Positions 2,523-27,541 of a stretch of 64,000 nt of DNA are shown here, in pieces. The translations under genes and the position numbers were made by a program. Under the pieces are notes generated by a model, which searched no databases, was not told where the DNA came from, and was given only the letters and a program-made list of their open reading frames with translations. Origin of the DNA: Occultella glacieicola (GTDB taxonomy: Bacteria > Actinomycetota > Actinomycetes > Actinomycetales > Beutenbergiaceae). The stretch's first letter is position 1, and each line of letters opens with the position of its first letter. The stretch covers positions 372,001 to 436,000 of the forward strand of contig NZ_SMNA01000006.1 of assembly GCF_004353825.1 (NCBI RefSeq), written 5' to 3'.

Positions 2523-2653
2523 GTCACCCAGCCTTGCGCGCCCATGGCGGCGGCGCAACGTCGTCCACGGGCCGGACGTGCCCGCCACCCCGCCCGAGCC
2601 GACGATCGTGCATGATGGCGGCCATGCATCGACGCACGGCAGGCGGCCCCGAC

Positions 2654-3568: not shown

Positions 3569-3601
3569 GCCGCTGAACCTCGGCGGCGCGGGACCGGCCG
3601 T

Positions 3602-4660: not shown

Positions 4661-4667
4661 CGCCGCC

Positions 4668-6173: not shown

Positions 6174-6293
6174 GTGCTTCTCCTCGGCGGATCGACCTCC
6201 GGGCCGCCGGCTCCGCCTCAGTCATCGACCGGCCCGTTCGCACCCTAGCCCGCGCCCCGCCGGCCCGATAGGTCAACCCGGTCCACCGAGCGT

Positions 6294-6714
6294 GGGTGTG
6301 CGTCATGGATGTGGTGTCAGCGCGTTGGTGCGGGTCAGCGAGTGTCTCCGGCGTGCTGTACACGATCAGATCCGGTCGGCGCGCAGGTCGGGAGGTTCTG
6401 GGGGGAGCGGGCTGTTGAGGCACGGGGTGGCTGGAGCGAGCACGTGCCTGTCGTGGGCGCTGGGTGCGTTCGGCCCGATAAGGGGGTGTGGTGCGCGCTC
6501 GCAGCGCCACACCCCGCTTCACCCTCGGCCGGTGCCCGCCCGTTCGGGTCCCTTGTGGTGTGATCGCGACGTGTCGGGCGCGTCGTTGTCGCACCGTTAC
6601 GGTGTCGCGGCCCTGGGGCGAGCGAGGAGGAGGGTGGGCCTGGGGTGCGGCATGCCCAGGGTCGAGGTGGGTGCGCGTCATCTGATGGCACCACCACACA
6701 CCTGACGCACACCC
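6294..6714. mobile_element. Putative non-autonomous miniature inverted-repeat element (MITE)
   Basis: Terminal IR GGGTGTGCGTCA (6294-6305) / TGACGCACACCC (6703-6714), extending to 20/23 identity. Flanks ACCGAGCgt (6285-6293) and ACCGAGCag (6715-6723). No credible ORF inside. Confidence 0.65.
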
Positions 6715-6802
6715 ACCGAGCAGGCCCCGATGAGCCGGTGTCGGCACGTCCCGTTACGCTCGGGCCCATGCCAGCGACACTTCGCCGACCCTCGCCGATG
6801 CC

Positions 6803-7630
6803 GTGATCGAGTTCCGCGGTGTCGGGAAGCGCTTCGCAGACGGGACGGACGCCGTCATCGACTTCAGCCTGGTGATGCCCTCGCACCGGGTGACCGTGCT
6901 CGTGGGGTCTTCGGGCTCCGGCAAGACGACGATCCTGCGGATGATCAACCGGATGGTCGACGCCACCGTGGGCACGGTCGAGATCGACGGGGAGGACGTC
7001 GCCACCCTCGAACCGGTCCAGCTGCGACGCCGGATCGGCTACGTCATGCAGAGCGGCGGCCTGCTGCCGCACCGCCGGGTCCTGGACAACATCACGACCG
7101 TGCCGCGGCTCAACGGGATGGGCCGCGCCGAGGCCGACGAACGCGGACTGTCCCTGATGGACACCGTCGGTCTCGACCGCACCCTGGCCCGGCGCTACCC
7201 GCATCAGCTCTCCGGCGGGCAGCAGCAGCGGGTCGGGGTGGCCCGCGGGCTCGCCGTCGACCCGAACATCCTGCTCATGGACGAGCCGTTCGGTGCGGTC
7301 GACCCGATCGTGCGCGCGGACCTGCAGGCCGAGTTGCTGCGGCTGCAGCGGGACATCGGCAAGACGGTCGTGTTCGTCACCCATGACATCGACGAGGCGT
7401 TCCTGCTCGGGGACCAGGTCGTGATCCTGTCCACCGGTGGTGTGATCGCCCAGCAGGGCACGCCGGCCGAGATCCTCGCGAACCCGGCCAGCGACTTCGT
7501 GGCCGACTTCGTCGGCGCCGACCGCGGCCGACGGGCTCTGCGGGTCGTCGAGCAGGACGGAAGGCGGGTGGTGGTGGACGGGGACGGGCGGGCCGCCGGC
7601 GTGCTCACCGACGATCCGGCGGCCCGGTGA
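6803..7630 (+). CDS. Osmoprotectant (glycine betaine/choline-type) ABC transporter ATP-binding protein
   Basis: GSSGSGKT, LSGGQQQR, LLMDEPFGAVDP, VTHD; OpuCA/ProV-like. Confidence 0.92.
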   Translation: MIEFRGVGKRFADGTDAVIDFSLVMPSHRVTVLVGSSGSGKTTILRMINRMVDATVGTVEIDGEDVATLEPVQLRRRIGYVMQSGGLLPHRRVLDNITTVPRLNGMGRAEADERGLSLMDTVGLDRTLARRYPHQLSGGQQQRVGVARGLAVDPNILLMDEPFGAVDPIVRADLQAELLRLQRDIGKTVVFVTHDIDEAFLLGDQVVILSTGGVIAQQGTPAEILANPASDFVADFVGADRGRRALRVVEQDGRRVVVDGDGRAAGVLTDDPAAR

Positions 7631-8322
7631 ACTGGGTCGGCGCCAACCTCGACCTCGTCGTCGAGCTGACGTTGACGCACGCGCGGCTCAGCATCGTCCC
7701 GATCCTGGTCGGGTTCGTCGTGGCCGTACCGCTCGGGGTGTTCGCGTGGCGGTTCCGCTGGGCCAGGGGGGTGACACTGACCGTGGTCGGCCTGCTGTAC
7801 ACGATCCCCTCGCTCGCCCTGTTCGTGCTCCTGCCGCCGATCATCGGGATCAGTTTCCTCAGTGAGCTCAACGTGACGATCGCCCTGAGCATCTACGCCG
7901 TCGCCCTGATGACCCGGTCCGCGACCGAGGCACTGGAGTCGGTCGACCCGGCCGTCCGGGGCGCCGCGAACGCGATGGGCTATTCGGGGTGGGGCCGGTT
8001 CTGGGCGGTGGACCTGCCATTGGCCGGCCCGGTGCTGCTCGCGGGCCTGCGGGTGGTCTCGGTGAGCACGGTCAGCCTCGTCACCGTCGGGGTCCTCGTG
8101 GGTAGCCGCAACCTCGGCTACCTGTTCATGAACGGTCTGCAGCGTGGCATCGTCGCCGAGATCGCGACCGGGATCGTGATGACCGTGCTGATCGCGGTGG
8201 CGTTCGACCTGCTCCTCGCCCTCGTCGGGCGGCTCGCGATGCCCTGGACCCAGGGCGCCGGCGGTGGTCGCCGCTCCCGGCGGGTGGCCCGGCGGATCGC
8301 CCTCACGGAGGGCCCGACGTGA
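7627..8322 (+). CDS. Osmoprotectant ABC transporter permease
   Basis: YTIPSLALF, EAA-like loop AANAMGY; GTGA overlap. Confidence 0.9.
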   Translation: MNWVGANLDLVVELTLTHARLSIVPILVGFVVAVPLGVFAWRFRWARGVTLTVVGLLYTIPSLALFVLLPPIIGISFLSELNVTIALSIYAVALMTRSATEALESVDPAVRGAANAMGYSGWGRFWAVDLPLAGPVLLAGLRVVSVSTVSLVTVGVLVGSRNLGYLFMNGLQRGIVAEIATGIVMTVLIAVAFDLLLALVGRLAMPWTQGAGGGRRSRRVARRIALTEGPT

Positions 8323-9065
8323 ACCTGTTCCTGGACGCCCTCGCGTGGCTGACCGACCCCGAACGGGTCACCGGGCCCAACCCGTTGGCCGAGCGGATCG
8401 GCGAACACCTCTGGTACACGGTGCTCGCCCTCGTGGTCTCGGCCCTGATCGCCGTCCCGCTCGGTTACCTGATCGGGCACACCGGCAAAGGTCGCCAGCT
8501 GGCCGTTCTGGGCTCCGGTGCGGCCAGGGCACTGCCCTCGCTCGGGCTGCTCACGATCTTCACGCTGATCGTCGGCGTCGGGAACGCCCAGGTCGCGGCG
8601 ATCGCGGTGTTCGTGATCCTCGGCGTGCCCTCGATCCTCGCCGGCGCCTACGCCGGCGTGGAGGCGGTGGACCGCAGCGTCGTGGACGCGGCCCGCGCGA
8701 TGGGAATGACCGAGACCCAGATCCTGTTCCGGGTTGAGGCGCCACTGGGCCTGCCGCTGCTGCTCGGCGGTCTGCGCAGTGCCGCGCTGCAGATCATCGC
8801 CACGGCGGTCCTCGCGGCCTACGTGGGCCTCGGTGGCCTGGGCATCTACATCCAACGAGGAATCTCACTACGAACCTACGACGAGATGCTGGGCGGGGCG
8901 ATCCTGATCGTGCTCCTCGCCCTCATCGTGGACGCACTGTTCGCGATCGCGGAGCGGGTGGCCCGCCGGGCCATCGGCTCCGCACCGTCCCGTGGCCGTC
9001 CGCGCAGCGAACGTCCCGAACCACTCAGCACCGACCGGCAGTCAACACTGGAGGAGATCCGATGA
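8319..9065 (+). CDS. Osmoprotectant ABC transporter permease
   Basis: RALPSLGLL, DAARAMGMT, GLGGLG. Confidence 0.9.
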   Translation: MNLFLDALAWLTDPERVTGPNPLAERIGEHLWYTVLALVVSALIAVPLGYLIGHTGKGRQLAVLGSGAARALPSLGLLTIFTLIVGVGNAQVAAIAVFVILGVPSILAGAYAGVEAVDRSVVDAARAMGMTETQILFRVEAPLGLPLLLGGLRSAALQIIATAVLAAYVGLGGLGIYIQRGISLRTYDEMLGGAILIVLLALIVDALFAIAERVARRAIGSAPSRGRPRSERPEPLSTDRQSTLEEIR

Positions 9066-10006
9066 GTATCCGTACCGTCCGGAAGGGGCGCCTGGCCACC
9101 GGCGCATTCGCCGTCGGCGCCGTCCTCGCCCTGGCCGCGTGTGGCTCGGGCGACCCACTCGCCCCCGAGGACACCGGATCCGAGTCCGGTGACGGCGGGG
9201 CCGCCACTGGCCCGATCGTGATCGGGTCACAGGCCTACTACTCGAACGAGATCATCGCCGAGATCTACGCGCAGGCGCTCGAGGCGGACGGGTTCGAGGT
9301 GGAACGCCAGTTCCAGATCGGCCAGCGCGACGTCTACATGGCCGCCATGGAGGACGGGTCGGTGCAGCTGATCCCCGAGTACTCCGGGAACCTGCTGCAG
9401 TTCTACGACGCGGAGACCGAGGCCCGCAGCACCGAGGACGTCGCAGCCGCGCTGCCGGACGCGGTGCCGGACGGCCTCGCCGTGCTGGACCCGGCGGACG
9501 CCCAGGACGCGGACTCCTACAACGTGACGGCCGCGTTCTCGGAGGAGAACGGCATCACGTCCCTGGCCGATCTGGCCGACTTCGACGGCACCCTCACGGT
9601 CGGCGGCAACGCCGAGCTCGAGTCCCGCCCGTACGGCCCGCCGGGACTGAGCGAGTTCTACGGAGTGGACGTGGAGTTCGTCGCCATCGGGGACAGCGGC
9701 GGCCCACTCACCAAGGACGCCATCCGGGACGGGACCATCACGATGGGCGATATCTACACCGCCGACCCTGACCTCGCGACCGGTGACTTCGTCACCCTGG
9801 AGGACCCGGAGAGCATGATCCTGGCGCAGAACGTGACCCCGGTGGTCGCGGCGGACCTGGCCGAGGCGGTGACCCCGACCCTGGACGCCGTGAACGCCCT
9901 GCTCACCACGGAGGAGCTGATCGCGCTCAACGCGAGCAGCGTGAACGACCAGCAGGACTCGGCGACCATCGCGACCGCGTGGCTCACCGACAACGGGCTG
10001 CTCTGA
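9062..10006 (+). CDS. Osmoprotectant ABC transporter substrate-binding lipoprotein
   Basis: Lipobox LAAC, IVIGS...EIIAEIYAQAL, PEYSGNL. Confidence 0.9.
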   Translation: MSIRTVRKGRLATGAFAVGAVLALAACGSGDPLAPEDTGSESGDGGAATGPIVIGSQAYYSNEIIAEIYAQALEADGFEVERQFQIGQRDVYMAAMEDGSVQLIPEYSGNLLQFYDAETEARSTEDVAAALPDAVPDGLAVLDPADAQDADSYNVTAAFSEENGITSLADLADFDGTLTVGGNAELESRPYGPPGLSEFYGVDVEFVAIGDSGGPLTKDAIRDGTITMGDIYTADPDLATGDFVTLEDPESMILAQNVTPVVAADLAEAVTPTLDAVNALLTTEELIALNASSVNDQQDSATIATAWLTDNGLL

Positions 10007-10010
10007 GCCG

Positions 10011-10535
10011 ATGAGCGTCAGCACCGACATCCTGGCCGACGGCTTCGCCCGCGTGCAGGGCCTGGTCCACCGTGTCCTCGATGACGCCGACGACCCGGTC
10101 CTCACCTCTCGTCTGGACCCGGCGGCGAACACGGTCGCGTGGCTGATCTGGCACCTGACCCGGGTCCAGGACGACCACGTCGCGGACGCCGCCGGATCGG
10201 AACAGGTGTGGTCCGCGGCAGGCTGGGTGGACCGGTTCGAGCTGCCGCTCCCGGCCGAGGACACCGGGTACGGTCACACCGCCGAGCAGGTCGGCCTGGT
10301 CCAGGCCGGCGCGCAGAACCTGCGCGGTTACCACGACGCGGTCCATGACCGCACCCTCGGCTACCTGGCCGGGTTGACCGAGGATGACCTCACCGCCGTC
10401 ATCGACACGAGCTGGGACCCGCCGGTCACGCTCGCGGTGCGGTTGGTCAGTGTGATCGGGGACGACCTGCAGCACGCGGGCCAGGCTGCCCTAATCAAGG
10501 GAATCCTCGCCCGCACCGGGACCGCAACCCGCTGA
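10011..10535 (+). CDS. DinB-superfamily / DUF664 (mycothiol transferase-like) protein
   Basis: ANTVAWLIWHLTR and DDLQHAGQAA metal-binding helices. Confidence 0.8.
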   Translation: MSVSTDILADGFARVQGLVHRVLDDADDPVLTSRLDPAANTVAWLIWHLTRVQDDHVADAAGSEQVWSAAGWVDRFELPLPAEDTGYGHTAEQVGLVQAGAQNLRGYHDAVHDRTLGYLAGLTEDDLTAVIDTSWDPPVTLAVRLVSVIGDDLQHAGQAALIKGILARTGTATR

Positions 10536-10547
10536 GCCGCACGCAAC

Positions 10548-10585
10548 GGCGGGCGGCCCGGGTCCGGTGACCCGGGCCGCCCGCC
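10548..10585. terminator. Bidirectional hairpin terminator
   Basis: Perfect 17-bp stem GGCGGGCGGCCCGGGTC-cggt-GACCCGGGCCGCCCGCC between convergent genes. Confidence 0.8.
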
Positions 10586-10603
10586 GTCCGCTGCCGCAGG
10601 AAC

Positions 10604-11851
10604 TCAGCGCAGGCCCTCGAAGAACGCCCGGATCTCCGCCACCAGCTCGTCCGGGGCCTCCATCGCCGGGAAGTGGCCACCGACCTCGAACTCCGTCCAC
10701 CGGGTGACGTTCCCCGTGTCGACGAGCGAGCGCACCGAGGGGTCGCCCGCGAACACGGCCACCCCCGTGGGCACGGTGGGCCCAGTGGGCACAGCCGTCG
10801 CCCCCTCCTGCCCGTCGGGTCCGGCTTGCGCGTCGGCTCCGGCGTATTCGGGTCGCTGGTCGTCCTCCCCGCCCGGCGGGGTCCAGTCGAGCTCGCCGTT
10901 CATGGACTCGTACACGAAGTTCGCCGAGCCGGCGCCGCCCTGGAAGAACCAGGTCAGGGTGACGTTGGTCAGCAGCTGGTCGCGGTCCACCGCGTCCTCG
11001 GGCAGGTCCTTGGCCGGGTCGGTCCAGGCCCGGAACTTCTCGACGATCCAGGACAGCTGCGCGACCGGTGAGTCGGTGAGCGCGACCGCGATCGTGGACG
11101 GCTGGTTGCTCTGCAGCAGGAAGTACCCGGACCCATGCTCGCCGAAGTCCTGCTCCGAACTCAGACGCTGCTGCTCGCGCTCCGTGAACTTCTGGCCCGG
11201 TGTCGGCTTGGCGAAGTTCGACGGGCCGTTCATGTGGATCCCGACCACGGCCTCCGGGGCCGCGCCGGCGAGCATCCCGGCCACGCCGGCACCGATGTCC
11301 CCGCCCTGGGTGCCGTACCGCCCGTACCCCAGCCGCCGCATCAGTTCGGCATAGGCGTCGACCGTGCGCGGCAGCCCCCATCCGGTGGTCGCCACCTCAG
11401 GCGAGAGACCGAACCCCGGCAGGCTCGGGATCACCAGGTGGAACGCCTGGTCCGGGTCCGAGCCATGATTGCGCGGGTCGGTGAGCGGACCGATGATCTT
11501 CTGGAACTCGACGACCGTGCTCGGCCAGCCGTGGCTGATCAGCAGCGGCATCGCACCCGGTTCGGGCGAGCGCACGTGCAGGAAGTGGACGTCCTGACCG
11601 TCGATCTCGGTGACGTACTGTGGGATGGCGTTCAGCCGCTCCTCCTGGGCGCGCCAGTCGAAGCCGGTGCGCCAGTACTCGGCCAGCCCGCGCAGGTAGC
11701 CGACCGGGGTGCCCCGCTCCCAGCCGACGCCCGGCAGCGCCACCGGCCACCGGGTCCTGGCCAGGCGCTCGTGCAGGTCGTCCAGGGCGGCCTGCGGGAT
11801 GTCGATCGTGTAGGGCCGGATCTCTGTGTCCTTCTGCATGTTCTTGTCCAT
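10604..11851 (-). CDS. Epoxide hydrolase (microsomal-type, alpha/beta hydrolase)
   Basis: [10 protein letters not shown]...LARTRWP, HGWPS, PSLPGFG, QGGDIG nucleophile, GGHFPAME. Confidence 0.92.
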
Positions 11852-11870
11852 GTCCACGACGCTACGCATG

Positions 11871-11895
11871 GATGTGGCGGGTTCGCTTCCGCATC
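11871..11895. promoter_or_regulatory. Probable operator between epoxide hydrolase and the WYL regulator
   Basis: Imperfect dyad GATGTGG-N11-CCGCATC in a 62-bp divergent gap. Confidence 0.4.
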
Positions 11896-11913
11896 TTCTG
11901 CCACCATCGACGC

Positions 11914-12873
11914 ATGATCTCGACGTCGGCCCGGCTCCTGCGCCTGCTGTCCCTGCTCCACACGCATCGGGCGTGGTCCGGTGGCGAGTTGTCCGAACGG
12001 CTGGGGGTGAGTACCCGCACCGTCCGGGCCGACGTCGAGGCGCTGCGCGAGCTCGGATACCCGGTCGACGCCGTCCGGGGCCCGGGTGGTGGGTACCGGC
12101 TCGTGGCCGGCACGAAACTGCCACCGTTGCTGCTCGACGACGAGGAGGCGGTCGCCGTCGCCGTCGGGCTCCGCTCGGCAGCCACCGGCGCCGTCGGCGG
12201 GATCGAGGAGACCTCGTTGCAGGCACTCACGAAACTCGAGCAGGTGCTGCCCAGCCGGCTGCGGCACCGGGTCGCGACGTTCACCGAGGCGGTGGTGCCG
12301 ATCCCGACGGCGGAGCCCACCGTGGCCGTCGACGTCCTGACCGCGGTCGCCTCGGCGGCCCGCGAGCATCAGCGGTTGCGGTTCGACTACACCGATCACC
12401 GGGGCGCGGTGACCAGGCGTGAGGTCGAGCCGCTCCGGCTCGTGAACACGGCGAGCCGCTGGTACCTGGTGGCGTGGGACACCGACCGCCGGGACTGGCG
12501 CACGTTCCGGGCCGACCGGGTCGAGCCGAAGGTCCCCGTGGGGCCGCGGTTCACACCGAGAGAGCCGCCCGCCACGGACCTGGCGGCCTATGTGAGTGAG
12601 CGGACCGGGACGGCGGTCTGGGGCGTCCAGGCCCGGATCCGGCTGCATGCTTCGGCGGCGTCCGTGGCCGCGCGGATCACGCCCACGATGGGATCGGTGA
12701 CGCCGATCGACGACGAGCACTGCGAACTGCGCACGGGCGGGTCCAGCCTGGAGGTCCTGGCCGCCTACCTGGGCCTGCTCGGCGTGGATTTCGACGTGCT
12801 CGCCCCGGCCGACCTCGTCGAGCATGTGCGCACCCTCGGCGAGCGCTACCGGCGGGCGGCCGACCCGCGGTGA
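11914..12873 (+). CDS. YafY-family HTH-WYL transcriptional regulator
   Basis: [43 protein letters not shown]...RTFRADR. Confidence 0.93.
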
Positions 12874-12891
12874 GGACCGCCCGGGCGAGCG

Positions 12892-14253
12892 TCAACGCTC
12901 GGCGGGCTCCGCCGTCGGGGTCCGGATCCCGATGAACGAGAAGGCCGCGCCGACGCCCATCAACAGCGCACTGACCACCAGACCGCGGTAGAACCCGGCC
13001 AGATCGAGCATGCCGCCGACGATCGTGCCGACCATGGCCACCGCGACCAGCCCGGCCACGCGCGAGATGGCGTTGTTCACGGCGGAGGCGATGCCGGCCC
13101 GCTCCGGGGCCACGGCACCGAGCACCGCCGACGTCAGCGGGGCGACGGTGACGGTCAGGCCGAGCCCGAACAGGATCACGCCGGGCAGCATCTGGGTCCA
13201 GTAGTTCATCGGGTCGGTGACGCTCAGCATGAGCAGGAACCCGGCGCCGGCGAGCAGCGGCCCGGCCGTCATGAACAGCCGCGGCCCGTACCGCCCGGAC
13301 AGCCGGCCGAACGTCGAGGACAGACCGATCATCAGGATCGTGGTCGGGATCATGGCGAGCCCGGCCACGGTGGCTCCGAAGCCCGCACCCTGCTGCAGGT
13401 AGACGACGATCACGAACCCGGACAGGCTCAGCGCCGCATAGATGAAGGTGGTCGCGAGGTTGCCCCAGGCGAAGTTGCGTACCCGGAACAGCCCGAGCGG
13501 CAGGATCGGTTGGGCCGTGGTCGCCTGCCGGCGCAGGAACGCGGCCAGAGCCAGCACGCCGACGAGCATCGGCCCCCAGATCGCGGGACTCGCCCAGCCC
13601 AGGTTGCCCTGCTCGATGAGGGCGAACACCGTGCCGCCCAGACCCACGACGGCCAGCACCGCGCCGGGATAGTCGATGGTGGCGCCCGGCCGGCGGACGT
13701 CCCGCTGCTCGAGTCGCGCGAGCAGGACCAGGCAGATCGCGATCGGGACCACGTTGACCAGGAAGGCGGCACGCCAGGACAGCAGGTCGATGAACCCGCC
13801 TCCGACGACCGGGCCGACGAGCTGGGCGACCGAGGTCCACCCGGTCCAGGACCCGATGGCGCGCGCCTGTGCGGCGTCGCGGAAGTTCGACATGATCAGG
13901 GCGAGCGAGCTCGGCACCAGGAGGGCGCCGGCGACGCCCTGGAGGGCACGCATCACCACGATGAACTCCACCGTGGGCGCGGCCGCGATGAGGGCCGAGG
14001 TGATCCCGAACCCGATCAGGCCGACCCGCAGCACCACGATCCGCCCGTACACGTCCGAGAGTGACCCCGCGATCAGGATCAAGGCACCGAGCGTGATCAG
14101 GTAGGCGTCGACGATCCACTGCTGCGAGCTCAGTCCGCCGCCGAGCTCGTCGCGGATCGCGGGCAGCGCGACGGTCGCGAGGGTGCCGTCGAGGAACGAG
14201 ACGAATGATCCCAGCACGGCGATCGCGAGCACCAGGCGCTGTTCGCGCGTCAC
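12892..14253 (-). CDS. MFS transporter, DHA2 (14-TM) family
   Basis: FLDGT...VALPAI, WIVDAYL, GSLSDVYGR, RALQG. Leaderless GTG 7 nt after TAGGCT. Confidence 0.9.
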   Translation of the reverse strand: MTREQRLVLAIAVLGSFVSFLDGTLATVALPAIRDELGGGLSSQQWIVDAYLITLGALILIAGSLSDVYGRIVVLRVGLIGFGITSALIAAAPTVEFIVVMRALQGVAGALLVPSSLALIMSNFRDAAQARAIGSWTGWTSVAQLVGPVVGGGFIDLLSWRAAFLVNVVPIAICLVLLARLEQRDVRRPGATIDYPGAVLAVVGLGGTVFALIEQGNLGWASPAIWGPMLVGVLALAAFLRRQATTAQPILPLGLFRVRNFAWGNLATTFIYAALSLSGFVIVVYLQQGAGFGATVAGLAMIPTTILMIGLSSTFGRLSGRYGPRLFMTAGPLLAGAGFLLMLSVTDPMNYWTQMLPGVILFGLGLTVTVAPLTSAVLGAVAPERAGIASAVNNAISRVAGLVAVAMVGTIVGGMLDLAGFYRGLVVSALLMGVGAAFSFIGIRTPTAEPAER

Positions 14254-14548
14254 GACCCGCAGCCTAGTCCAGTCCAGCCCCCTGCCCGCGGGGTCCCGCC
14301 GCCGCTCGGTGGGCTCGGCGCTGAGCTCGGCGCCGCCGCGCACGCTTCGGCACTCAGAGCTTCGAGTTCGTCCGCGGGCGGGACCTGCACCGACGCAAAC
14401 GCAACCTGGCCACGTACTTCGTGCTCCCGGTCGGCTACTCGGTCGTGGCCAGCGGTGCCATGATCGGCCGGCTCGTGGAACCACTGGGCAGGGTGCGGTG
14501 GACGAAGGAGGGACCTCCTGACCCCGACGCCGCCCGGGACCCGCGGGG

Positions 14549-15478
14549 TCAGGGCAGCGTGTGTCCGGCGGCGCTGAACAGCCGGTACCACTCCTCGCGC
14601 GTCAGCGGGACCTGCGAACCCGCCGCGGCATCCGCCACCCGCTCGGGACTGGTGGTGCCCAGGACCACCTGCATCTCGGCCGGGTGACGGGTGATCCAGG
14701 CGACCGCGATCGCGGCGGGGGGCACCCGGTAGGCATCCGCGAGGTCGTCGATCTCGTCGTTGAGCGGGCCGTAGTGCTCCCGGTCGCCGAGGAAGACCCC
14801 GGAGGCGAACCCGCTCTGGAACGGTGACCAGGCCTGCAGGGTGATCCGGTTCATCCGGGCGTGGTCGAGGATCCCGCTACCGCGGTCGATCGAGGCGTCC
14901 AGGTGCGCCATGTTCGTCGCGAGCCCGCTCGCGATCAGCGGAGCGTGCACGAGGCTCAGCTGCACCTGGTTCACCACCAGGGGCTGGCGCACCGACCGGC
15001 GCAGCAGCTCGATCTGCCCGGGGGTGTGGTTGGAGACTCCGAAGTTGCGCACCTTCCCGGTGCCCTGGAGTTCGTCGAACGCCTCGGCGACCTCGTCCGG
15101 TTCCATCAGCGTGTCCGGCCGGTGCAGCAGGAGCAGATCCAGGTACTCGGTGCGCAACGCGACCAGGGACTCCTCGACCGTCCGCACGATGTGAGCCTTG
15201 CTGAAGTCGTAGAGGCCCGGCCGGATCCCGACCTTCGACTGGATCAGGACGGACTCCCGTTCCGCCGGTCCGAAGCTGATCGCGTCCCCGAACCGCTGCT
15301 CACAGGCGTGCCGCTGTCCCCCGTAGATGTCGGCGTGGTCGAAGCTGTTCACGCCGTTGTCGCGGGCCACGGCCACCAGGGTGCGGATCTCCTCGTCACG
15401 CAGTTGGGCGATGCGCATCATGCCGAGCACCACGTTGGAGGCGTTCAGGTCGGTCCCGTGGATCGGAAGGATCTTCAT
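14549..15478 (-). CDS. Aldo/keto reductase (YdhF/YcsN-like)
   Basis: LGMMRI, FDHADIYG, IQSKVG, LLLHRPD, GVSNH, QAWSP. Confidence 0.9.
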   Translation of the reverse strand: MKILPIHGTDLNASNVVLGMMRIAQLRDEEIRTLVAVARDNGVNSFDHADIYGGQRHACEQRFGDAISFGPAERESVLIQSKVGIRPGLYDFSKAHIVRTVEESLVALRTEYLDLLLLHRPDTLMEPDEVAEAFDELQGTGKVRNFGVSNHTPGQIELLRRSVRQPLVVNQVQLSLVHAPLIASGLATNMAHLDASIDRGSGILDHARMNRITLQAWSPFQSGFASGVFLGDREHYGPLNDEIDDLADAYRVPPAAIAVAWITRHPAEMQVVLGTTSPERVADAAAGSQVPLTREEWYRLFSAAGHTLP

Positions 15479-20845: not shown

Positions 20846-21697
20846 TCAGGCCTTCTTGGCGAAGTCCTCCGGGAACCCGTTGAACTCATCCGGGTGGAAC
20901 CCGGTCCGGTCGCCGCGCTCGAGGCCGTTGACGGCCTCGATGTCGGCGTCGGTCAGCTCGAAGTCGAAGACGGCGATGTTCTCCGCGACCCGCTCCGGGG
21001 TGACCGACTTCGGGATCACGATGTTGCCGAGCTGCAGGTGCCAGCGCAGCACCACCTGGGCCGCACTGCGGCCGAGCCGCTCGGCGATCGCAGTGATGAC
21101 CGGGTCGGCCAGGACCCGCCCCTGACCGAGCGGGCTGTAGGCCTCGGTGGCGATCCCCTGCGCCGCGTTGAACTCGCGGACGTCACGCTGCTGCAGGTAG
21201 GGGTGCACCTCGATCTGGTTCACGGACGGCAGCGGCAGGCCGGCCTCCACGAGCTGCTCGACGTGGTGGGGCAGGAAGTTGGAGACGCCGATCGAGCGGA
21301 TCCGGCCGGCGTCCTTCAGCTCGCTGATCGCGCGCCAGGAGTTCACGGCCTCACCGCGCTTCGGTGCCGGCCAGTGGATCAGGTAGAGGTCGACGACGTC
21401 CCGGCCCAGCGCCTTCGCGCTCGCGTCGAACGCGGCGAGGGTGCTGTCGTAACCCTGGTCGTCGTTGGCGAGCTTGGTGGTCACGAACACCTCGTCGGCG
21501 CCGAGCGACGAGGCTGCGAGGGCCGCGCCCACGCCGGTCTCGTTGCGGTAGCGGGCGGCGGTGTCGATCGCGCGGTAGCCCGCCTCGAGGGCGTGCGTCA
21601 CGGCGATCTGGGTCTCCTCCGGCGGCACCTGGAACACGCCGAAGCCGAGCTGCGGGATCGTCACGCCGTCGTTCAGTGTCACCTGGGGATGGGTCAT
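20846..21697 (-). CDS. Aldo/keto reductase (2,5-diketo-D-gluconate reductase-like)
   Basis: IPQLGFGVF, GYRAIDTAARY, FVTTKL, DLYLIHWP, IPKSVTPER. Confidence 0.93.
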   Translation of the reverse strand: MTHPQVTLNDGVTIPQLGFGVFQVPPEETQIAVTHALEAGYRAIDTAARYRNETGVGAALAASSLGADEVFVTTKLANDDQGYDSTLAAFDASAKALGRDVVDLYLIHWPAPKRGEAVNSWRAISELKDAGRIRSIGVSNFLPHHVEQLVEAGLPLPSVNQIEVHPYLQQRDVREFNAAQGIATEAYSPLGQGRVLADPVITAIAERLGRSAAQVVLRWHLQLGNIVIPKSVTPERVAENIAVFDFELTDADIEAVNGLERGDRTGFHPDEFNGFPEDFAKKA

Positions 21698-21822
21698 GGT
21701 GCTCCTTCTCTCGTCGCTGTCTGCTTAGGTATGACCATAGCGAGGTTGCGCGTCGAGAGAGTGTTCGTCTCGCTGGACGGCTTGCAGAACCGCGCCACGA
21801 GGCACCCGCTGCCAGCCGTGCC

Positions 21823-22467
21823 TCAGGCCGCGTCCGTCTGTGACCGCGGGTACAGGTCGGCCATCGCGAAGTCCAGATACCTGTGCAGAATGACCGTCCC
21901 ACCGTCCTGGAAGTGAACACGACAAAGGCACAGGAACGGCATGTAACTGTGCGCACGGACTCCGATCGGGCGCCCGGGCTCGCCCTTGACGGTGAAGATC
22001 CGGTTCCGCCAGCCGCGTCCGAGGAAGAACTCAGCTCTCGTCACGTCGGAAAGGTCTGACGGGTAGCCCTTCTCCGCTCGGCGGTGGCCGACGAGGGAGA
22101 CGAACACCTCGAACTTCTGGCCCGGGAGGTTCGACGGCGCGATCACGTGTGAGAGGAAGACGAACCTGTTGTCGTCGTACAGGCGCGACCGTTCGCGCAG
22201 CCACCCGTCCAGGTCCCCCCTCGATGCGCTAGCACCGGCCCCCAGCGCATGTCCGCGCTCGGCATCAACGGATCTGAGGTCCTCGTAACGGTCGATGAGT
22301 TTCGCGCTGAACCCCGCCGGACCACCGAGCTGAAGCTCCGCGCCGGATTTGACACGGGTGGTGATCGATCCCACGAATCGCGTCAGTGGCCTGCGGAAGA
22401 CAAGCAGGAGCACCAACATCGTGATCGGCCACACCAGCGTCTGCAATAGAGGGATCCAAGCCTCCAT
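21823..22467 (-). CDS. Membrane-anchored protein with a C-terminal prokaryotic YEATS-like domain
   Basis: 214 aa; N-terminal TM (LVWPITMLVLLLVFRR); C-terminal FEVFVSL...DVTRAEFFLGRGW...SYMPFLCLCRVHFQDG.TVILHRYLDF pattern; leaderless CATCCT-N6-ATG. Confidence 0.65.
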   Translation of the reverse strand: MEAWIPLLQTLVWPITMLVLLLVFRRPLTRFVGSITTRVKSGAELQLGGPAGFSAKLIDRYEDLRSVDAERGHALGAGASASRGDLDGWLRERSRLYDDNRFVFLSHVIAPSNLPGQKFEVFVSLVGHRRAEKGYPSDLSDVTRAEFFLGRGWRNRIFTVKGEPGRPIGVRAHSYMPFLCLCRVHFQDGGTVILHRYLDFAMADLYPRSQTDAA

Positions 22468-22578
22468 CCAGGCAGGATGGCACCGCACCGGGCGCAGCCG
22501 CAGGCGATTCGCACCAGACGGATACGTCGATCGCCAGCCGATGGGCGCGGGCCGCCGACTGCGACGATACTGACCTGC

Positions 22579-23562
22579 GTGACCAACGACCCCGCCCACG
22601 ACCTGCCCGAGTCCGAGGAGGTCGCCCGACTCGTCGGCAATGCGCCCCGCCCGTCCGCCGTGATCGTCAACCCGCACCGGCTCGACGACATCGAGCGTCT
22701 GCGCCGCACTATCAGCACCACGCTCACCGACGCGGACTGGCCGGAGCCCCTCTGGCTGGAGACCACCGAGGACGATCCGGGCACCGGGCAGGCCCGCGAG
22801 GCTGTGGCAGACGGTGCGGAGGTCGTGTTCGTCAGCGGCGGTGACGGCACCGTGCGGGCATGCGTCGAGGGACTCGCCGGAAGCGACGCGGCCCTGGCCA
22901 TCCTGCCGGGCGGTACCGGGAACCTGCTCGCCGGGAACTTCGCGATCCCCACCGACCCCGCCGACGGCGTGCGGCTGGCCATCGCGGGTGGGCGCCGGCG
23001 CATCGACGTCGGCGAGGTCGGCGCGCAGGTGTTCGCCGTGATGGCGGGCATGGGCTTCGACGCCAAGATGCTCGACAGCGCCTCGACGGAGCTGAAGGCC
23101 AGGATCGGCGCACCGGCCTACGTGGTGTCCGCGATGAAGCACCTGTTCGACCATCCGATGCGGGTGCAGGTGGTCGTCGACGACGCCGAGCCCCTCGACC
23201 GCAGGGCCCGCTCGGTGATCGTCGGGAACGTCGGTCAGATCCAGGCGGGCGTCGCACTCTTCCCGGACGCCGAGCCGGACGACGGCTACCTGGACGTGGC
23301 GATCCTCGCGCCGCGCCATCTCGGGCACTGGGTCTCGACCGTGGCGGGCGTGCTGACGCGCCGGAAGCGCGTGCCGAACCTGGAGATCCTGCGGGGCAAG
23401 CGCGTCCGAGTCCGGAGCACGCAGGCGCATGACCGTGAACTCGATGGCGACGTGATCGAGCCGGGTCACGAACTCCTGGCCACCATCCGGCCCGCCTGCC
23501 TCTGGATCTGTGTTCCCACCGAAAGGCCCACGGGAGGCTCGGGTGCTCGATCGGCCCGCTGA
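22579..23562 (+). CDS. Diacylglycerol/lipid kinase family (YegS/BmrU)
   Basis: VIVNP, GGDGTV, LPGGTGNL, AGMGFDA, DDGYLDV, ELDGD. Confidence 0.92.
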   Translation: MTNDPAHDLPESEEVARLVGNAPRPSAVIVNPHRLDDIERLRRTISTTLTDADWPEPLWLETTEDDPGTGQAREAVADGAEVVFVSGGDGTVRACVEGLAGSDAALAILPGGTGNLLAGNFAIPTDPADGVRLAIAGGRRRIDVGEVGAQVFAVMAGMGFDAKMLDSASTELKARIGAPAYVVSAMKHLFDHPMRVQVVVDDAEPLDRRARSVIVGNVGQIQAGVALFPDAEPDDGYLDVAILAPRHLGHWVSTVAGVLTRRKRVPNLEILRGKRVRVRSTQAHDRELDGDVIEPGHELLATIRPACLWICVPTERPTGGSGARSAR

Positions 23563-23688
23563 CGGCGAGCGTCCCGCCGCCGGAGGCCTCTCGAAGCCCC
23601 CGGTGCGATCGTAGGTGACGACTCCATGGCGGTGCCGGTGAGACGGCGAACAGGGGACGAGCAAGCCGCCATCGCGCGGTGGGTGGCC

Positions 23689-23721
23689 GGGCAGTGTGGG
23701 CAGTGTGGGCAGTGTGGGCAG
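23689..23721 (+). repeat. Short tandem repeat (GGGCAGTGT)x3.7
   Basis: GGGCAGTGT at 23689, 23698 and 23707 plus GGGCAG. Confidence 0.9.
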
Positions 23722-24079
23722 CACACGCATCGGATGGGGCCGGTGCGCCCGGACGGGTGAGGGTCCGCCGTCATAGAACCAGCCGGTGCTCGTCACCGCC
23801 TCCAGGCCGGAGGACTCGATCGTGACGACCACCCGGCCGGCCCGGTTCGGTGGGCACGCGGGCGGCGTCGGCCCCGGGTGGCGGCAACCGGCGCCCATCG
23901 TCCGCAGAGTCGAGTCGCCGAGGGCGGCGGGCTCACCGTCACAGGACGACCGCAGATCCCCGCGACGTGCACCCAGGTGGTCCTGAATCACGGGTGTCGC
24001 AGCGGTCCGGCTGCGAGCGCTCGTGGCACCGCGGTGCTGGACCGGCTCGCCCGGACTCCCTCGGATTTTTCATCCGGGT

Positions 24080-24162: not shown

Positions 24163-24981
24163 ATGCGAAAGTCAGCAGCCGCCCTCGGCGGGACGCTCGG
24201 TATCGCCGCGCTCGTTCTCGCCGCCACCCCGGCCACCGCGGACTCCCACACGGCGTCCCTTTCCGTGCTGCACGGCGTTCCGGACCTCACCGTGGACGTC
24301 TACGTCAACGGAGAGATCACCCTCGACGACTTCGCGCCGGGCGAACTGGCCGGCCCGCTCGAGCTCGAGCCCGGCACCTACACCGTCGCGATCACCGCCG
24401 CGGACGCAGCCGATGACGGCGCCCCCGTGATCGGCCCGGTTGACCTGCCGCTGGAGGAGGGCAGGAACTACACCGCAGTCGCCCACCTCGACGCCCAGGG
24501 CAGCGCTCCGACGGCCACACTGTTCACCAACGACACGTCACCGACCGCGCCCGGCGAGGGCCGGCTCACGGTGCGGCACGTCGCCGCCGCTCCCGCGGTG
24601 GACGTACTGGCCGGGGGTGAGGCCGTGATCAGTGGGCTGGCGAACCCGGACGAGGCTTCGCTCGACCTGCCCGCCGGGACCGTCTCGGCCGCCGTGGCGG
24701 CCGCCGGCACCACCGAGCCGGTCATCGGGCCGGCGGATGTCACCGTTGCCGAGGGCGTCAGCACCGTCGTCTACGCCTGGGGCAGCCTCGAGGCCGGCAC
24801 CCTTGCCCTTGCCACGCAGACGATCGAGGGTCTGCACTCCTCCCCGGACGGGGTGCCGACCGGTCAGGTGCAGGTCGTCGAGGAATCGTCCTCGGCCGTC
24901 CTCTGGGCGGGTGCCGCCGCGGTGCTGGCTCTGTTCGTCGGCTTCGGCGTCCGACGGGCCGCCGTGACCCGCGACCGTTGA
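24163..24981 (+). CDS. Secreted DUF4397 protein with C-terminal sortase sorting signal
   Basis: GGAGG RBS; signal peptide; LSVLHGVP..VDVYVNG and LTVRHVAAAPAVDV repeats; VPTG + TM + RR tail. Confidence 0.85.
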   Translation: MRKSAAALGGTLGIAALVLAATPATADSHTASLSVLHGVPDLTVDVYVNGEITLDDFAPGELAGPLELEPGTYTVAITAADAADDGAPVIGPVDLPLEEGRNYTAVAHLDAQGSAPTATLFTNDTSPTAPGEGRLTVRHVAAAPAVDVLAGGEAVISGLANPDEASLDLPAGTVSAAVAAAGTTEPVIGPADVTVAEGVSTVVYAWGSLEAGTLALATQTIEGLHSSPDGVPTGQVQVVEESSSAVLWAGAAAVLALFVGFGVRRAAVTRDR

Positions 24982-25688
24982 TGAACTCGCGGGGCATGCG
25001 CCGCACCGGCGTCGCCGCGGCGGTAGCCGGCCTCGCGCTCATGGTGGGCTGCTCCCTCTCCCCTGGGGGGCAGCCCACCACCTCGACGGCGACGCCGGTC
25101 GGTGATGCCGACCCGGCCGGCGGCGCCACCACCGAGCCGGCACCTGGGCCCAGCGCCCCGGTGCCGGCCTCGCCCGTCCCGGGCGAGGGCCCGATTCCCG
25201 TGGTCGACTCGACCGGCACCCGCACCGCAGAGCCGGTGGTCGCCCCGGCGCGGCTCGAGCTGGCGGCGCTGGGCATCGACATGCCCGTCACGGCGGTCGA
25301 CATCGCCCCGGACGGACAGATGGAGATCCCCGAGAACGCCCTGGTCGCCGGCTGGTACCGGTTCGGTCCGACCGCAGGCGCCGTGTCTGGTGCGGTGGTG
25401 ATCGCCGCTCACGCCGGGTCCTACGTCACCCCGGTGGGACCGTTCCACGACCTGGATGAGGCGGCGGCGGGCGATCCGATCACGGTCACCCTGGTGGACG
25501 GCACCGCGGTGGCGTACGACGTGGAATCGGTGGAACGTCTGGCGAAGGACGTGATCGACCTCGGGCCGTACTTCGATCGGACGGGTGAGCACCGGCTCGT
25601 GCTCATCACCTGCGGAGGCCGTTGGGACCCCGAGCGCCGCAGTTACGACGACAACATCGTGCTGACCGCTAGGATTCGCACAGGATGA
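24981..25688 (+). CDS. Class F sortase
   Basis: GQMEIP, AGWY, VIAAH, LVLITCGG, YDDNIV; possible lipobox MVGC; TGATG coupling. Confidence 0.92.
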   Translation: MNSRGMRRTGVAAAVAGLALMVGCSLSPGGQPTTSTATPVGDADPAGGATTEPAPGPSAPVPASPVPGEGPIPVVDSTGTRTAEPVVAPARLELAALGIDMPVTAVDIAPDGQMEIPENALVAGWYRFGPTAGAVSGAVVIAAHAGSYVTPVGPFHDLDEAAAGDPITVTLVDGTAVAYDVESVERLAKDVIDLGPYFDRTGEHRLVLITCGGRWDPERRSYDDNIVLTARIRTG

Positions 25689-26323
25689 ACGGGCAGGTGG
25701 GGCGTCCCGGCGCAACGACGCGGGACCGGCCGAGCGGGTCCCCGGTGACGTCGAGGAGGTCGGAGCCAGTGGGCGAGGTGGAGGCGACGGCCATGCTGCT
25801 TGAGCGCGCCTTCCTCGACGGCAGGCCCGAGTCGATGCGGGCCCTCTATGACCGATACGCACCGCTCGTTTTCACGATCGCGATGCGTTCCCTGGCTTCG
25901 GTCCCCGACGCCGAGGACGTGACCCAGCAGGTGTTCGTCGCGGCATGGCGGGGCCGGGTTGGGTTCGATCCTTCCCGCGCACCGCTGCAGGCGTGGCTGA
26001 TCGGGATCACCAGGAACGCCGTCGCCGACGCGCACGCCCGCAGAGCCCGAGAGGGACGGGCCACCGACGCTGCCCGGACCGGGGCCACCGACCACATCGA
26101 GGACGGCTCGGCACAGGTGGTGGACCAGGTGCTGGTCGCCGAAGCGATCGACGAGCTGGGTGAACCGCAACGAGCGATTATCAGAATGGCGTTCTTCGAC
26201 GAGTTGACCCATGTCGAGATCGCCGACCGGGTCGGCCTTCCGCTCGGCACCGTGAAATCACACATCAGACGGAGCCTCGGCAGGCTGCGCACGAGACTGG
26301 AGGTGGCAGATGTCGCATCTTGA
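25685..26323 (+). CDS. sigK: ECF RNA polymerase sigma factor (SigK-like)
   Basis: DAEDVTQQVF, WLIGITRN, LTHVEIA..GLPLGTVKSHIRRSL; exact start uncertain. Confidence 0.85.
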   Translation: MNGQVGRPGATTRDRPSGSPVTSRRSEPVGEVEATAMLLERAFLDGRPESMRALYDRYAPLVFTIAMRSLASVPDAEDVTQQVFVAAWRGRVGFDPSRAPLQAWLIGITRNAVADAHARRAREGRATDAARTGATDHIEDGSAQVVDQVLVAEAIDELGEPQRAIIRMAFFDELTHVEIADRVGLPLGTVKSHIRRSLGRLRTRLEVADVAS

Positions 26324-27053
26324 CGACCAGACGATCGCCCTCCGTGCCCTCGGCGAGGACCCGGGGCCTGAGGCGAGCGCGCACCTGGCCGGCTGTGCCA
26401 CGTGCCGCGACGAGGTCGGGGCCCTGCAGCGGGTGACGACCGCCGCGCGTGCGGGCGCGCCCCGCCTGGACGTTCCCGATGAGCGGGTCTGGCAGCATGT
26501 GGCCGAGGAACTCGGCCTGGACCGGATCGGTGCCGATGGAGTCGTCACCGACGAGGTCGACGCGGACCCGGACGACGCCGACGAGCCGCACGCGCCGATC
26601 CGGCTCAGTCACGACGTGCCCGCGCCCACGTCGTGGTGGCGGCGCCCCGTCTGGGTCGCGGCCGCCGGGTTCGTGCTCGGGGCCGCGGTCACCGCCGGCG
26701 CCCTGACGCTGGGTGGAGAAGGCGAACCACCGGTCGTCGCGACGGCCGAACTCGACCCACTGCCCGGCCACGAGGTGACCGGTACCGCCGCAGTTCATGA
26801 CGTGGACGGGCGTCAGGTCCTGCGCGTGGAACTTCCGGACCCCGGTGGCGCCGGGTTCCTGGAGGTCTGGCTCCTCGACGCCGACGCACAACGACTGGTC
26901 AGCCTCGGCATCCTCACCGGCACCGAGGGAACCTTCGACCTGCCCGTCGGCCTGGACCTCAGCGAGTTCCCGGTCGTGGACGTCTCGGAGGAACCTTTCG
27001 ACGGGGACCCAGCGCACAGCGGGGACAGCATCGTGCGCGGCACGCTCGCCTGA
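26310..27053 (+). CDS. rskA: RskA-family anti-sigma factor
   Basis: HLAGCATC (ZAS HxxxCxxC), single TM, extracytoplasmic EVWLL...SLG...VDVSEEP..G.PAHSG. Confidence 0.85.
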   Translation: MSHLDDQTIALRALGEDPGPEASAHLAGCATCRDEVGALQRVTTAARAGAPRLDVPDERVWQHVAEELGLDRIGADGVVTDEVDADPDDADEPHAPIRLSHDVPAPTSWWRRPVWVAAAGFVLGAAVTAGALTLGGEGEPPVVATAELDPLPGHEVTGTAAVHDVDGRQVLRVELPDPGGAGFLEVWLLDADAQRLVSLGILTGTEGTFDLPVGLDLSEFPVVDVSEEPFDGDPAHSGDSIVRGTLA

Positions 27054-27541
27054 GCGGACGGCATCGAGCGCGCACGCTCCCCCGAGCCGGCGGGCCTGCC
27101 ACTCGGAGGTCGACGCGCCCGGGGTGCCCCTCGTATCGATGGTGAACAGGTCCCTGACCTCACGCCGTCTCGCCGCGCCCTGGACCACCCGTCGGTATCA
27201 CGCGCGAGACCCAGGCGCTGAAGTTTCCCGTTCGCCACGTCGACCTCTAGGTCCGACGGCGGGTCGGCGACGACCGAGTGGTCAGACTCCCCCACCGCGA
27301 TGCTCGTGATGACTTCGGCGACCTTCGCGGTCTCGTCAGCATCGTCGTGTCGGCCCTTCCTCGTGGGATGTGCAGTCCGAACGAGTCCTCAGCGGGTCGC
27401 GCACCCGGGCCATCCCCGGCGACCGCCGGCAGACCTACGCCGCCCACCCGTCGTGGCAGGGCGCCGAGCCTGCTGCTCGCAGGCACGCGATAGCGTGACC
27501 CGGGCAACTCCGCCCTCCCCGCTCAGCCCGAAGGACTTCGC

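Follow-up and report, generated by a model that had tools for sequence, protein, structure and literature searches.

What does a solitary bacterial gene for a membrane-anchored YEATS-like protein do for its host? We addressed this question for a gene at positions 21823..22467 (minus strand) of a 64,000-nucleotide stretch of the Occultella glacieicola genome (contig NZ_SMNA01000006.1, positions 372,001 to 436,000), referred to here as the window. A first-pass annotation had read the gene as a horizontally acquired defence module that combines a sensor, a prokaryotic YEATS (pYEATS) domain, with a membrane effector. The identity of the domain, the membrane tether and the acquisition as a solitary gene were all supported by our analysis, whereas the defence function is a matter of what we infer. 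The reading that we favour, with a little less than an even chance of being right, is a single-gene conflict module in which a dimer of membrane-anchored pYEATS sensors acts through its transmembrane (TM) helices as effector.

A real gene within a spurious reading frame

The minus strand of the window contains an open reading frame (ORF) of 722 amino acids (aa) at 21823..23991, of which only the last 214 codons are the gene, as the first-pass annotation had proposed. This 214-codon stretch displays the coding-type order of G+C content over the three codon positions, as in the high-G+C host genome (GC1 0.642, GC2 0.470, GC3 0.805; GC3 > GC1 > GC2). In the 508 codons upstream of Met1, GC1 (0.84) exceeds GC3 (0.76), a non-coding pattern, and these codons are the antisense of a plus-strand DAGK_cat/YegS_C gene; on both grounds the 722-aa ORF was ruled out as a single gene. 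Many full-length homologues begin at the equivalent Met-x-Ala/Glu-Trp position, and because their N-termini coincide there we take the ATG at 22467 as the start. The coding sequence (CDS) of the membrane-anchored pYEATS protein (214 aa), as delimited by the ORF, the G+C pattern, the homologue starts and the Pfam match, ends with a stop codon at 21823-21825, measures 645 bp with the stop included and has an intact reading frame across its full length. We conclude that the 214-codon stretch is a real gene.

The DNA had also been described as visibly more A/T-rich than its neighbours, which the composition bears out. The G+C content of the CDS is 63.9%, against a mean of 71.1% (sd 2.1, minimum 66.8) for 59 other genes called in the window by a GC3 criterion, and its GC3 is 80.5%, against a mean of 91.0% (sd 3.0, minimum 82.2). 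It is the lowest of the 60 genes in both measures, with z about -3.4 and -3.5, respectively. The GC3-based gene caller missed the CDS because of this low GC3.

The protein joins a membrane helix to a domain with the YEATS fold

Pfam assigned the protein to a single family, PF20305 (pYEATS), at 41.7 bits against a cut-off of 26.9; the match covers residues 136-199 (21871..22062, minus strand, as are all parts of the gene given below) and profile positions 10-73 of 73. All 50 members of an alignment of full-length relatives, termed A2 and picked from matches that align from the N-terminus, match PF20305 as well. In Pfam, the eukaryotic YEATS family PF03366 gave no match to the protein at E up to 10; a scan of NCBIfam gave a chance match only (E 0.074), and a scan of PHROGs gave no family.

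An AlphaFold2 model built with A2 reached a mean pLDDT of 86.4 and a pTM of 0.69, with 10-residue block means of 92-98 over residues 91-200. The model contains helices at 4-23, 25-40, 54-61, 71-74 and 84-99, so that it is helical up to residue 99, followed by seven strands within 103-198, the last of which leads into the C-terminal motif quoted in the first-pass annotation; pLDDT falls below 50 at residues 42-49. The order of TM helix, linker and all-beta C-terminal domain read from the sequence is therefore that of the model. The TM helix (codons 4-24, 22396..22458) has block pLDDT values of 91-97 and is predicted to run N-out/C-in. A second helix at 25-40, which holds the conserved Arg38, and a variable, partly low-confidence linker make up codons 25-84 (22216..22395). 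The full pYEATS domain (codons 85-205, 21853..22215) consists of a helix at 85-99 that carries Arg93 and a seven-strand beta-sandwich.

The first-pass annotation had suggested comparing a predicted structure with known YEATS domains, and these ranked first in three structure searches. With Foldseek, every row among the PDB matches listed was a YEATS domain, the best being YEATS2 (7eie_A; E 1.2e-4, TM-score by target 0.62, root-mean-square deviation (rmsd) 2.9 over 103 columns). The VIA structure comparison returned YEATS entries in 50 of 50 cases, among them GAS41 (Z 11.4, rmsd 3.0, 98 aligned) and YEATS2 (Z 11.3, rmsd 2.7, 100 aligned). A search independent of Foldseek, run over 48,161 representative chains, placed YEATS domains in the top 8 positions (Z 10.9-9.2, 11-20% identity), and glycosidase, FN3 and immunoglobulin (Ig) domains came next at Z 8.4 or less (3-15% identity). 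These YEATS matches span model residues from about 85 or 101 to 208. The BFVD viral structure library gave generic Ig-like matches only, with poor rmsd.

Profile hidden Markov models of A2 and of a broader alignment of 148 sequences (A4) gave no YEATS match among PDB sequences. Three matches at E >= 0.56 were rejected as chance; one of them was an ATP-synthase b subunit over the TM-helix region. In the Atlas, the two clusters nearest to this protein carry PF03366 on 45% and 22% of their members. Because the sequence profiles gave no match, the link to eukaryotic YEATS domains rests on structure and on these Atlas family shares. We conclude that the C-terminal domain belongs to the Pfam pYEATS family and, in its modelled structure, has the YEATS fold.

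Residues 5-23 form the only N-terminal hydrophobic segment (Kyte-Doolittle 19-mer mean 2.16). The 4 residues before it contain 0 Lys/Arg, and 4 Arg/Lys follow within 15 residues after it. The 50 relatives in A2 show the same bias, with means of 0.46 Lys/Arg and 1.52 Asp/Glu in the N-terminal flank and 3.38 Lys/Arg in the C-terminal flank. By the positive-inside rule, a positively charged flank predicts the cytoplasmic side. Because the charge bias follows this rule, we predict that the short acidic N-terminus lies outside and that the pYEATS domain is cytoplasmic, which agrees with the membrane tether proposed earlier.

The presence of the TM helix throughout A2 results from the selection of full-length aligners. 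In A4, which is less selected and comprises the protein and 147 of the best 150 representative matches (three long proteins, P0071, P0084 and P0092, were excluded), a TM-like segment precedes the domain in 106 of 148 sequences, in a ranking that still favours full-length matches to the query. Mean conservation is 0.46 for the TM segment versus 0.27 for the linker. At least 90% of the 50 A2 sequences retain Trp13 and Arg38, and Pro6 and Gln9 of the TM helix are also conserved among close relatives. The conservation of this helix exceeds what a passive anchor needs.

The pYEATS domain is predicted to form a homodimer

Two copies of the protein were submitted to ESMFold2 with A2, which gave ipSAE values of 0.77, 0.77 and 0.76 in three runs, against 0.00 for the best of 3 controls. 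The ipSAE mark used here was reached by 20 of 30 solved homodimers and 1 of 23 solved single chains, a calibration that is rough for a prediction with its own alignment. The runs agreed in at least 81% of contacts, with a partner pLDDT of at least 75. The predicted interface is symmetric and comprises helices 50-68 and 81-97, strands 104-128, loops 147-160 and 166-181, and strand 193-206. Within the domain, 16 positions reach a conservation of at least 85% in A2; 13 of these fall in this interface, and mean conservation is higher there (0.58) than elsewhere (0.46; one-sided Mann-Whitney p 0.004). The pYEATS domain and the preceding helices are thus predicted to form a symmetric dimer, and the modelled interface offers an explanation for the invariance of Arg93, His107, Arg196 and Asp199.

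A methionine replaces a putative pocket-wall glycine

All of the family-invariant residues, R93, H107, G150, W153, G169, R196, D199 and F200, are present in the protein; each is kept in 134-148 of the 148 A4 sequences. Two Cys, at 180 and 182, are also conserved. To relate these positions to a known ligand site we used YEATS2, for which the portion of the published work available (PMC4856769) describes crotonyl-lysine clamped by Tyr262 and Trp282, with His259, Ser261, Gly283, Glu284 and Phe285 completing the site, and loss of all binding in G283A. The closest YEATS2 alignment pairs model residues 101..208 with chain residues 208..315 (98 aligned, rmsd 2.2), which is an offset of 107 at both ends. 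By this range offset only, Tyr175 falls on Trp282, Met176 on Gly283 and Phe178 on Phe285, so that the Tyr-Gly-Pro-Phe loop of the family (175-178) lies on Trp282-Gly283-Glu284-Phe285; the invariant Gly150-x-x-Trp153 loop comes, by the same offset, within two residues of His259-x-Ser-Tyr262.

Position 175 is occupied by an aromatic residue or His in 146 of 148 sequences, and position 153 by Trp (143) or Phe (5). Position 176, which follows the loop aromatic, is small in 141 sequences (Gly 125, Ala 16). The protein in the window has Met there, encoded by the ATG at 21940..21942 in a Tyr175-x-Pro-Phe loop, and this is the only Met among the 148; a small residue is absent from this place. Either the pocket is changed or occluded in this copy, or the role of the loop is in dimerisation rather than in binding a ligand.

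The same domain is joined to TIR, PNP and DUF4062 domains in other proteins

Thirteen further proteins, 197-236 aa long, were recovered by a word-indexed search (E 1.5e-62 to 2.2e-27, 34-53% identity), the closest relative being 53% identical, and 12 of the 13 carry a precomputed PF20305 match. When 1.84 billion representatives were searched exhaustively, 507 clusters matched at E up to 0.001; tightening the limit to 1e-10 left 281, and to 1e-30, 15. Cellulomonas sp., Agromyces sp. and Burkholderia ubonensis are the sources of the named members, so that the family spans two phyla; full-length homologues with a name are 36-46% identical. The protein is a further member of a curated Pfam family already named by NCBI in other genomes, and its membrane-anchored form is the commonest architecture among the nearest relatives.

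A survey of 22 of the longer matches among the best 150 revealed, N-terminal to pYEATS, DUF4062 in 4, PNP_UDP_1 in 3 and TIR_2 in 1; the other 14 matched pYEATS only. One of the PNP_UDP_1-pYEATS proteins adds a trypsin-like domain. In the TIR_2-pYEATS protein the C-terminal domain is 46% identical to residues 88-200 here (BLASTP, E 1e-28), and its TIR matches the PADLOC SAVED-TIR and ThsB models. A PNP-pYEATS protein matches the PDC-M60C candidate system (1.9e-40) and a CBASS PN-superfamily effector (5.5e-25). Clusters in the Atlas likewise join pYEATS with DUF4062, TIR_2 and a metallophosphoesterase. Judged by sequence, near-identical putative sensor domains are attached to either a TIR or a membrane helix.

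An excerpt of a preprint (10.64898/2026.10.19.760177) describes pYEATS as a ligand-binding domain of conflict systems. The supplement of an eLife 2021 study (PMC8195603), in the portion available, includes nSTAND1+prokYEATS and GDSL+YEATS, and the main text of that article does not contain the word 'YEATS'. Two further candidate sources, PMC7159879 and PMC13586616, were set aside, 'Yeats' being an author name only in both.

Homologues are sporadic and sometimes phage-borne

The scan of genome contigs for homologue loci used the 13 closer sequences and yielded 1 locus, that of the Agromyces homologue (39% identity). Genes for a prohead protease and a major capsid protein are found 0.7 kb from this homologue, with a rep-like helix-turn-helix (HTH) gene and a large serine integrase next to them and a ComM-like gene without its N-terminal part on the homologue's other side. 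The locus looks like a phage-satellite or prophage-like island. We note that the island is compact (4455-14835 of the Agromyces sp. contig, locus L009), with integrase, rep-like HTH, capsid, protease and pYEATS homologue accompanied by several small genes of no assigned family. It may have integrated into comM, as proposed because the adjoining ComM-like gene is without its N-terminal part.

With a second alignment (A5), three IMG/VR contigs were found to carry a homologue (Pfam 41-42 bits) at the very end of a lambdoid prophage, in cargo DNA of low G+C content past the lysis cassette and the tail fibre. In one of these, L023, the order is a host Fe-alcohol-dehydrogenase gene, a low-G+C block (51-54%) that includes pYEATS, and then spanin, endolysin, holin and tail fibre genes. 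The homologue in this block (963-3800) sits amid four or five small genes with no Pfam, PHROG or PADLOC match, and the block could hold further accessory genes. On one metagenome contig the homologue adjoins a DDE transposase and two XRE regulators. On another, L017, the one flanking frame scanned encodes a DUF7586 protein; L019 is a fragment only, and its neighbours fall outside the neighbour scan. Linkage to a DAGK-like gene was seen in 0 of the 12 homologue loci examined. The picture is of a sporadic, mobile accessory gene that is sometimes phage-borne.

The gene was probably acquired on its own

The gene is flanked downstream by an aldo/keto reductase gene (20846..21697, minus strand; PF00248, 168.6 bits), which is outside the module, and upstream by the divergent DAGK_cat/YegS_C lipid-kinase-like gene (22579..23562, plus strand; assigned by Pfam), whose antisense gives rise to the spurious 722-aa ORF. 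The pYEATS and DAGK-like genes are separated by 111 bp. In all three congeners compared (G001-G003) the aldo/keto reductase and DAGK-like genes adjoin, with DNA identities to the host of 89-90% and 82-84%, respectively. By blastn and alignment, homology with the congeners stops near 21740-21745 on the aldo/keto reductase side; it resumes at 22565 in G003 and, by blastn, at 22627 in G001 and G002, with a short common anchor, CGATACTGACC, at 22565-22575. The stretch between the anchors common to the three congeners, 21746..22564, is ~820 bp here and ~100-140 bp there, and the entire gene lies within it, together with the DNA on either side.

Of 40 relatives searched, comprising 3 congeners, 21 further genomes of the host's taxonomic family and 16 from other families in the order, none yielded the protein. 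The family profile matched 1 of 400 other genomes of the class, and the host genome has a single pYEATS match. The earlier claim that the gene has no adjacent partner holds, both flanking genes being neighbours in the three congeners. The claim that it was acquired horizontally as a solitary gene is supported by its absence from three congeners with intact, contiguous flanks, by the lack of a match in the 40 relatives and by its low G+C content. Because the gene is absent from other genera and has a foreign composition, gain in the host lineage is the simpler reading. The genus is unrooted, and the alternative would be that the gene was lost once, in the congeners' common ancestor.

The lone match among these 400 genomes (locus L011, 919-1839, genome G125) is a 307-aa frame whose pYEATS domain is preceded by an N-terminal region that differs from the one described above, is longer and includes two hydrophobic stretches rich in Ala and Leu. 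In this frame Pfam matches the pYEATS domain but nothing N-terminal to it, and PADLOC gives no match. From these hydrophobic stretches it is, putatively, another membrane-associated variant.

At the insertion borders we found no mobility gene, repeat family or target-site duplication, only short pairs that are probably due to chance, such as a 14-nt inverted pair at 21711-21724 and 22554-22567. The inserted stretch is single-copy in the genome. DNA similarity to the homologue loci is confined to the CDS, and no common cassette or miniature inverted-repeat transposable element was seen.

Proposed function and alternative explanations

We propose that the horizontally acquired, membrane-anchored pYEATS protein, as a predicted homodimer, would act as a self-contained anti-phage conflict module of the abortive-infection type. 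The cytoplasmic pYEATS dimer would sense a ligand derived from the invader, which might be a small molecule or a mark of the acyl-amide or peptide kind. Once bound, this ligand would promote assembly into higher-order complexes and so cluster the conserved TM helices, and the clustered helices would damage the membrane and halt the infected cell. In such a scheme the TM helix would take the place held by TIR, PNP or DUF4062 in other pYEATS proteins. A defence role is made more likely by the fact that the same domain partners TIR, PNP and DUF4062 and that homologues are borne by prophages and satellites. A bolder form of the proposal holds that the TM-pYEATS protein is a complete one-gene abortive-infection system whose dimer reads an acyl-amide or peptide mark present only during phage infection, clusters its TM helices and kills the cell; it would then be the first bacterial case of 'reader-domain' immunity and would represent a prokaryotic root of eukaryotic acyl-lysine reading. 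We consider this fuller claim unlikely to hold.

Several observations weigh against the conflict-module reading. PADLOC-DB 2.0 returned 0 families for the protein at E up to 10. The surroundings of the gene are metabolic or housekeeping in nature, with no defence island and no mobility gene or target-site repeat. Co-localisation of homologues with defence islands, which the first-pass annotation had suggested looking for, was not seen among the neighbours scanned: 0 of 17 scanned homologue neighbours match a PADLOC defence model, generic HTH matches aside. Five of eight metagenome loci (L012, L014, L015, L016 and L018) have metabolic or Pfam-less flanks, on contigs of 2.0-2.7 kb, and the three IMG/VR loci, two of them near-equal in length, are probably one lineage and not independent. 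A tblastn search with the protein of 72,556 plasmid and 50,697 phage records gave no match, nor did the closest-relative alignment against viral contigs. In the literature searched, no experimental study of pYEATS was found. On the side of the model, the confident dimer contacts exclude the TM helix, a single helix in each protomer makes for a minimal effector, and the link between interface and conservation depends on an alignment that was also used for the prediction. The conserved 'pocket' residues 147-150 and 153 fall in the predicted dimer interface and, on that model, may serve dimerisation, not ligand binding. Finally, Met176 is accompanied, in the loop paired by offset with the YEATS2 pocket wall, by a rare Ala172 (family Thr in 122) and a rare Ser174 (family Ala in 140), and the sensor of this copy may be altered or dead.

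The last point leads to the possibility that the gene is relic cargo, transferred with an altered or dead sensor and persisting either functionless or with a shifted specificity. The change from Gly to Met in the putative pocket wall, unique among 148 sequences, and the two rare neighbours fit this idea, as does the loss of all binding by YEATS2 G283A (in the portion of PMC4856769 available) if Gly283 is residue 176, which is the pairing given by the range offset; so does a locus with no partner, island or mobility gene. However, the frame is intact, all of the other near-invariant residues are kept and the model is confident. Moreover, position 176 tolerates Ala in 16 of the 148 relatives and the YEATS2 mapping is by offset only, and we think a relic quite unlikely. 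The protein could instead be functional without killing the cell, as a tethered dimer that sequesters an incoming phage or plasmid protein at the inner membrane in the manner of prophage superinfection-exclusion proteins; the helix would then be a mere anchor for an exclusion factor or decoy, and the cell would survive. The accessory ('moron') position of full-length homologues at a prophage end and in the phage-satellite-like island is in keeping with this, as are a single TM helix with a 4-residue outer tail and its place outside the confident dimer contacts. Nevertheless, the fact that relatives join the same domain to effectors of the cell-killing type (TIR, PNP) suggests a trigger more than a trap, and specific TM residues are conserved (W13, with P6 and Q9 among close relatives). 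We regard exclusion as doubtful.

Two further explanations would take the gene out of conflict altogether. A physiological, membrane-proximal reader of acylated lysines, or of another acyl-amide, on host envelope proteins or lipid intermediates would make the adjacency of the DAGK/YegS-like gene meaningful. The divergent arrangement at 111 bp, the YEATS fold, the aromatic residues at 153 and 175 and the Tyr-x-Pro-Phe loop are what such a reader might show. Yet the gene is missing in three congeners that keep both neighbours, was found in none of the 40 relatives and in only 1 of 400 further genomes of the class, and has a foreign G+C content, and the neighbours of its homologues are unrelated, with no DAGK-like linkage at any of the 12 loci; this makes a host reader very unlikely. 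If the hydrophobic segment were instead a signal-anchor, the domain would lie outside the cell and would sense cell wall or external ligands, and the conserved Cys180 and Cys182 could in principle form a disulphide. The charge bias is the opposite of that of a signal-anchor (0 vs 4 Lys/Arg here, means of 0.46 vs 3.38 in A2), and the partner domains TIR and PNP are cytoplasmic enzymes. We give this extracytoplasmic arrangement hardly any credence.

Other features of the locus and the window

An imperfect hairpin over the stop codon of the pYEATS gene (21791..21832, minus strand; inverted repeat I6, with arms of 15 nt that are 80% complementary and a loop of 12 nt) is a possible terminator without a T-tract. 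Consensus scans gave 0 promoters and 0 terminators, and Rfam gave nothing in 21400-22900. The longest ORF of the DAGK-like gene opens at an ATG at 22477; its GC3 profile and congener homology from GTGACC favour the GTG at 22579. This GTG is probably the true start, the first 34 codons of the long ORF (22477-22578) then probably being untranslated.

A ~20-nt motif at 21725-21745, just upstream of the aldo/keto reductase start, reads TTAGGTATGACCATAG here and TTAAGTATGACCATAGG in the three congeners. It is conserved amid otherwise diverged intergenic DNA, and the insertion starts directly after it. The motif could be an operator or promoter element of the aldo/keto reductase gene.

The wider neighbourhood contains aldo/keto reductases, a flavoprotein oxidoreductase, a DinB-type polymerase, an EamA transporter, a DUF4397 protein and a sortase, as well as an extracytoplasmic function (ECF) sigma/anti-sigma pair, SulP, TetR and a hydrolase. 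The genes for the DUF4397 protein, the sortase, an ECF-type sigma factor and an RskA-like anti-sigma factor form a cluster on the plus strand at 24163-27053, with 4-bp overlaps at the junctions 24978-24981 and 25685-25688 and a 14-bp overlap of the sigma and anti-sigma frames. This looks like a sortase-substrate unit with its own sigma/anti-sigma pair. At its end, overlapping frames on opposite strands, 26265-27188 (minus) and 26310-27053 (plus), both have coding-like GC3 values (0.83 and 0.85, respectively); of the two, only the plus-strand frame has a Pfam match (RskA_C).

Significance and relation to known systems

The pYEATS domain is a bacterial counterpart of a eukaryotic chromatin 'reader' domain, and the literature found, as far as its available portions go, is comparative genomics in which the domain is a presumed conflict-system sensor. 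The locus described here is close to the simplest test case: a single 645-bp gene with a clean presence/absence pattern among congeners and no partner, in which the predicted dimer leaves a soluble domain that could be purified. If the gene protects against phage, a one-protein defence system would be defined and the ligand of a bacterial YEATS domain revealed; if it does not, the assumed immune role of the pYEATS family would need rethinking. The unique Met176 is a natural probe of the pocket.

Within the PF20305 pYEATS family, including the Agromyces sp. and Burkholderia ubonensis entries, the architecture of TM helix, linker and pYEATS in 197-236 aa is common to the 13 other proteins. This copy departs from the family in having Met176, Ala172 and Ser174 where the others have Gly, Thr and Ala. 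The eukaryotic YEATS readers (YEATS2, ENL/AF9, GAS41, Yaf9 and Taf14) have the same beta-sandwich (Z 9.2-11.4, rmsd 2.2-3.0 over 96-102 residues in the best rows), and the aromatic-Gly-x-Phe loop recurs, by offset, in the pYEATS consensus as Tyr-Gly-Pro-Phe. In contrast to these readers, the protein in the window is bacterial and membrane-anchored, has no chromatin context and carries Met in place of the putative pocket-wall Gly. It also has an extra N-terminal helix that bears an invariant Arg, and it is predicted to dimerise via the domain itself.

The conflict-module reading that we favour brings the protein close to the effector-pYEATS fusions (TIR_2-, DUF4062-, PNP_UDP_1- and ParA-pYEATS, and nSTAND1+prokYEATS), which share its C-terminal domain and its order of N-terminal effector and C-terminal sensor. 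Here, however, a single TM helix replaces the enzymatic effector, and there is no NTPase and no second gene. Pycsar PycTM and the CBASS TM effectors are membrane effectors of signalling defence systems. The likeness to them is in the way they work only, namely an N-terminal TM segment and a predicted cytoplasmic, putatively ligand-binding C-terminal domain. The protein differs from these effectors in having one helix and not two or more, an unrelated sensor fold and no PADLOC match, and its locus, unlike those of TM-effector signalling systems, has no adjacent cyclase or other signal-making enzyme.

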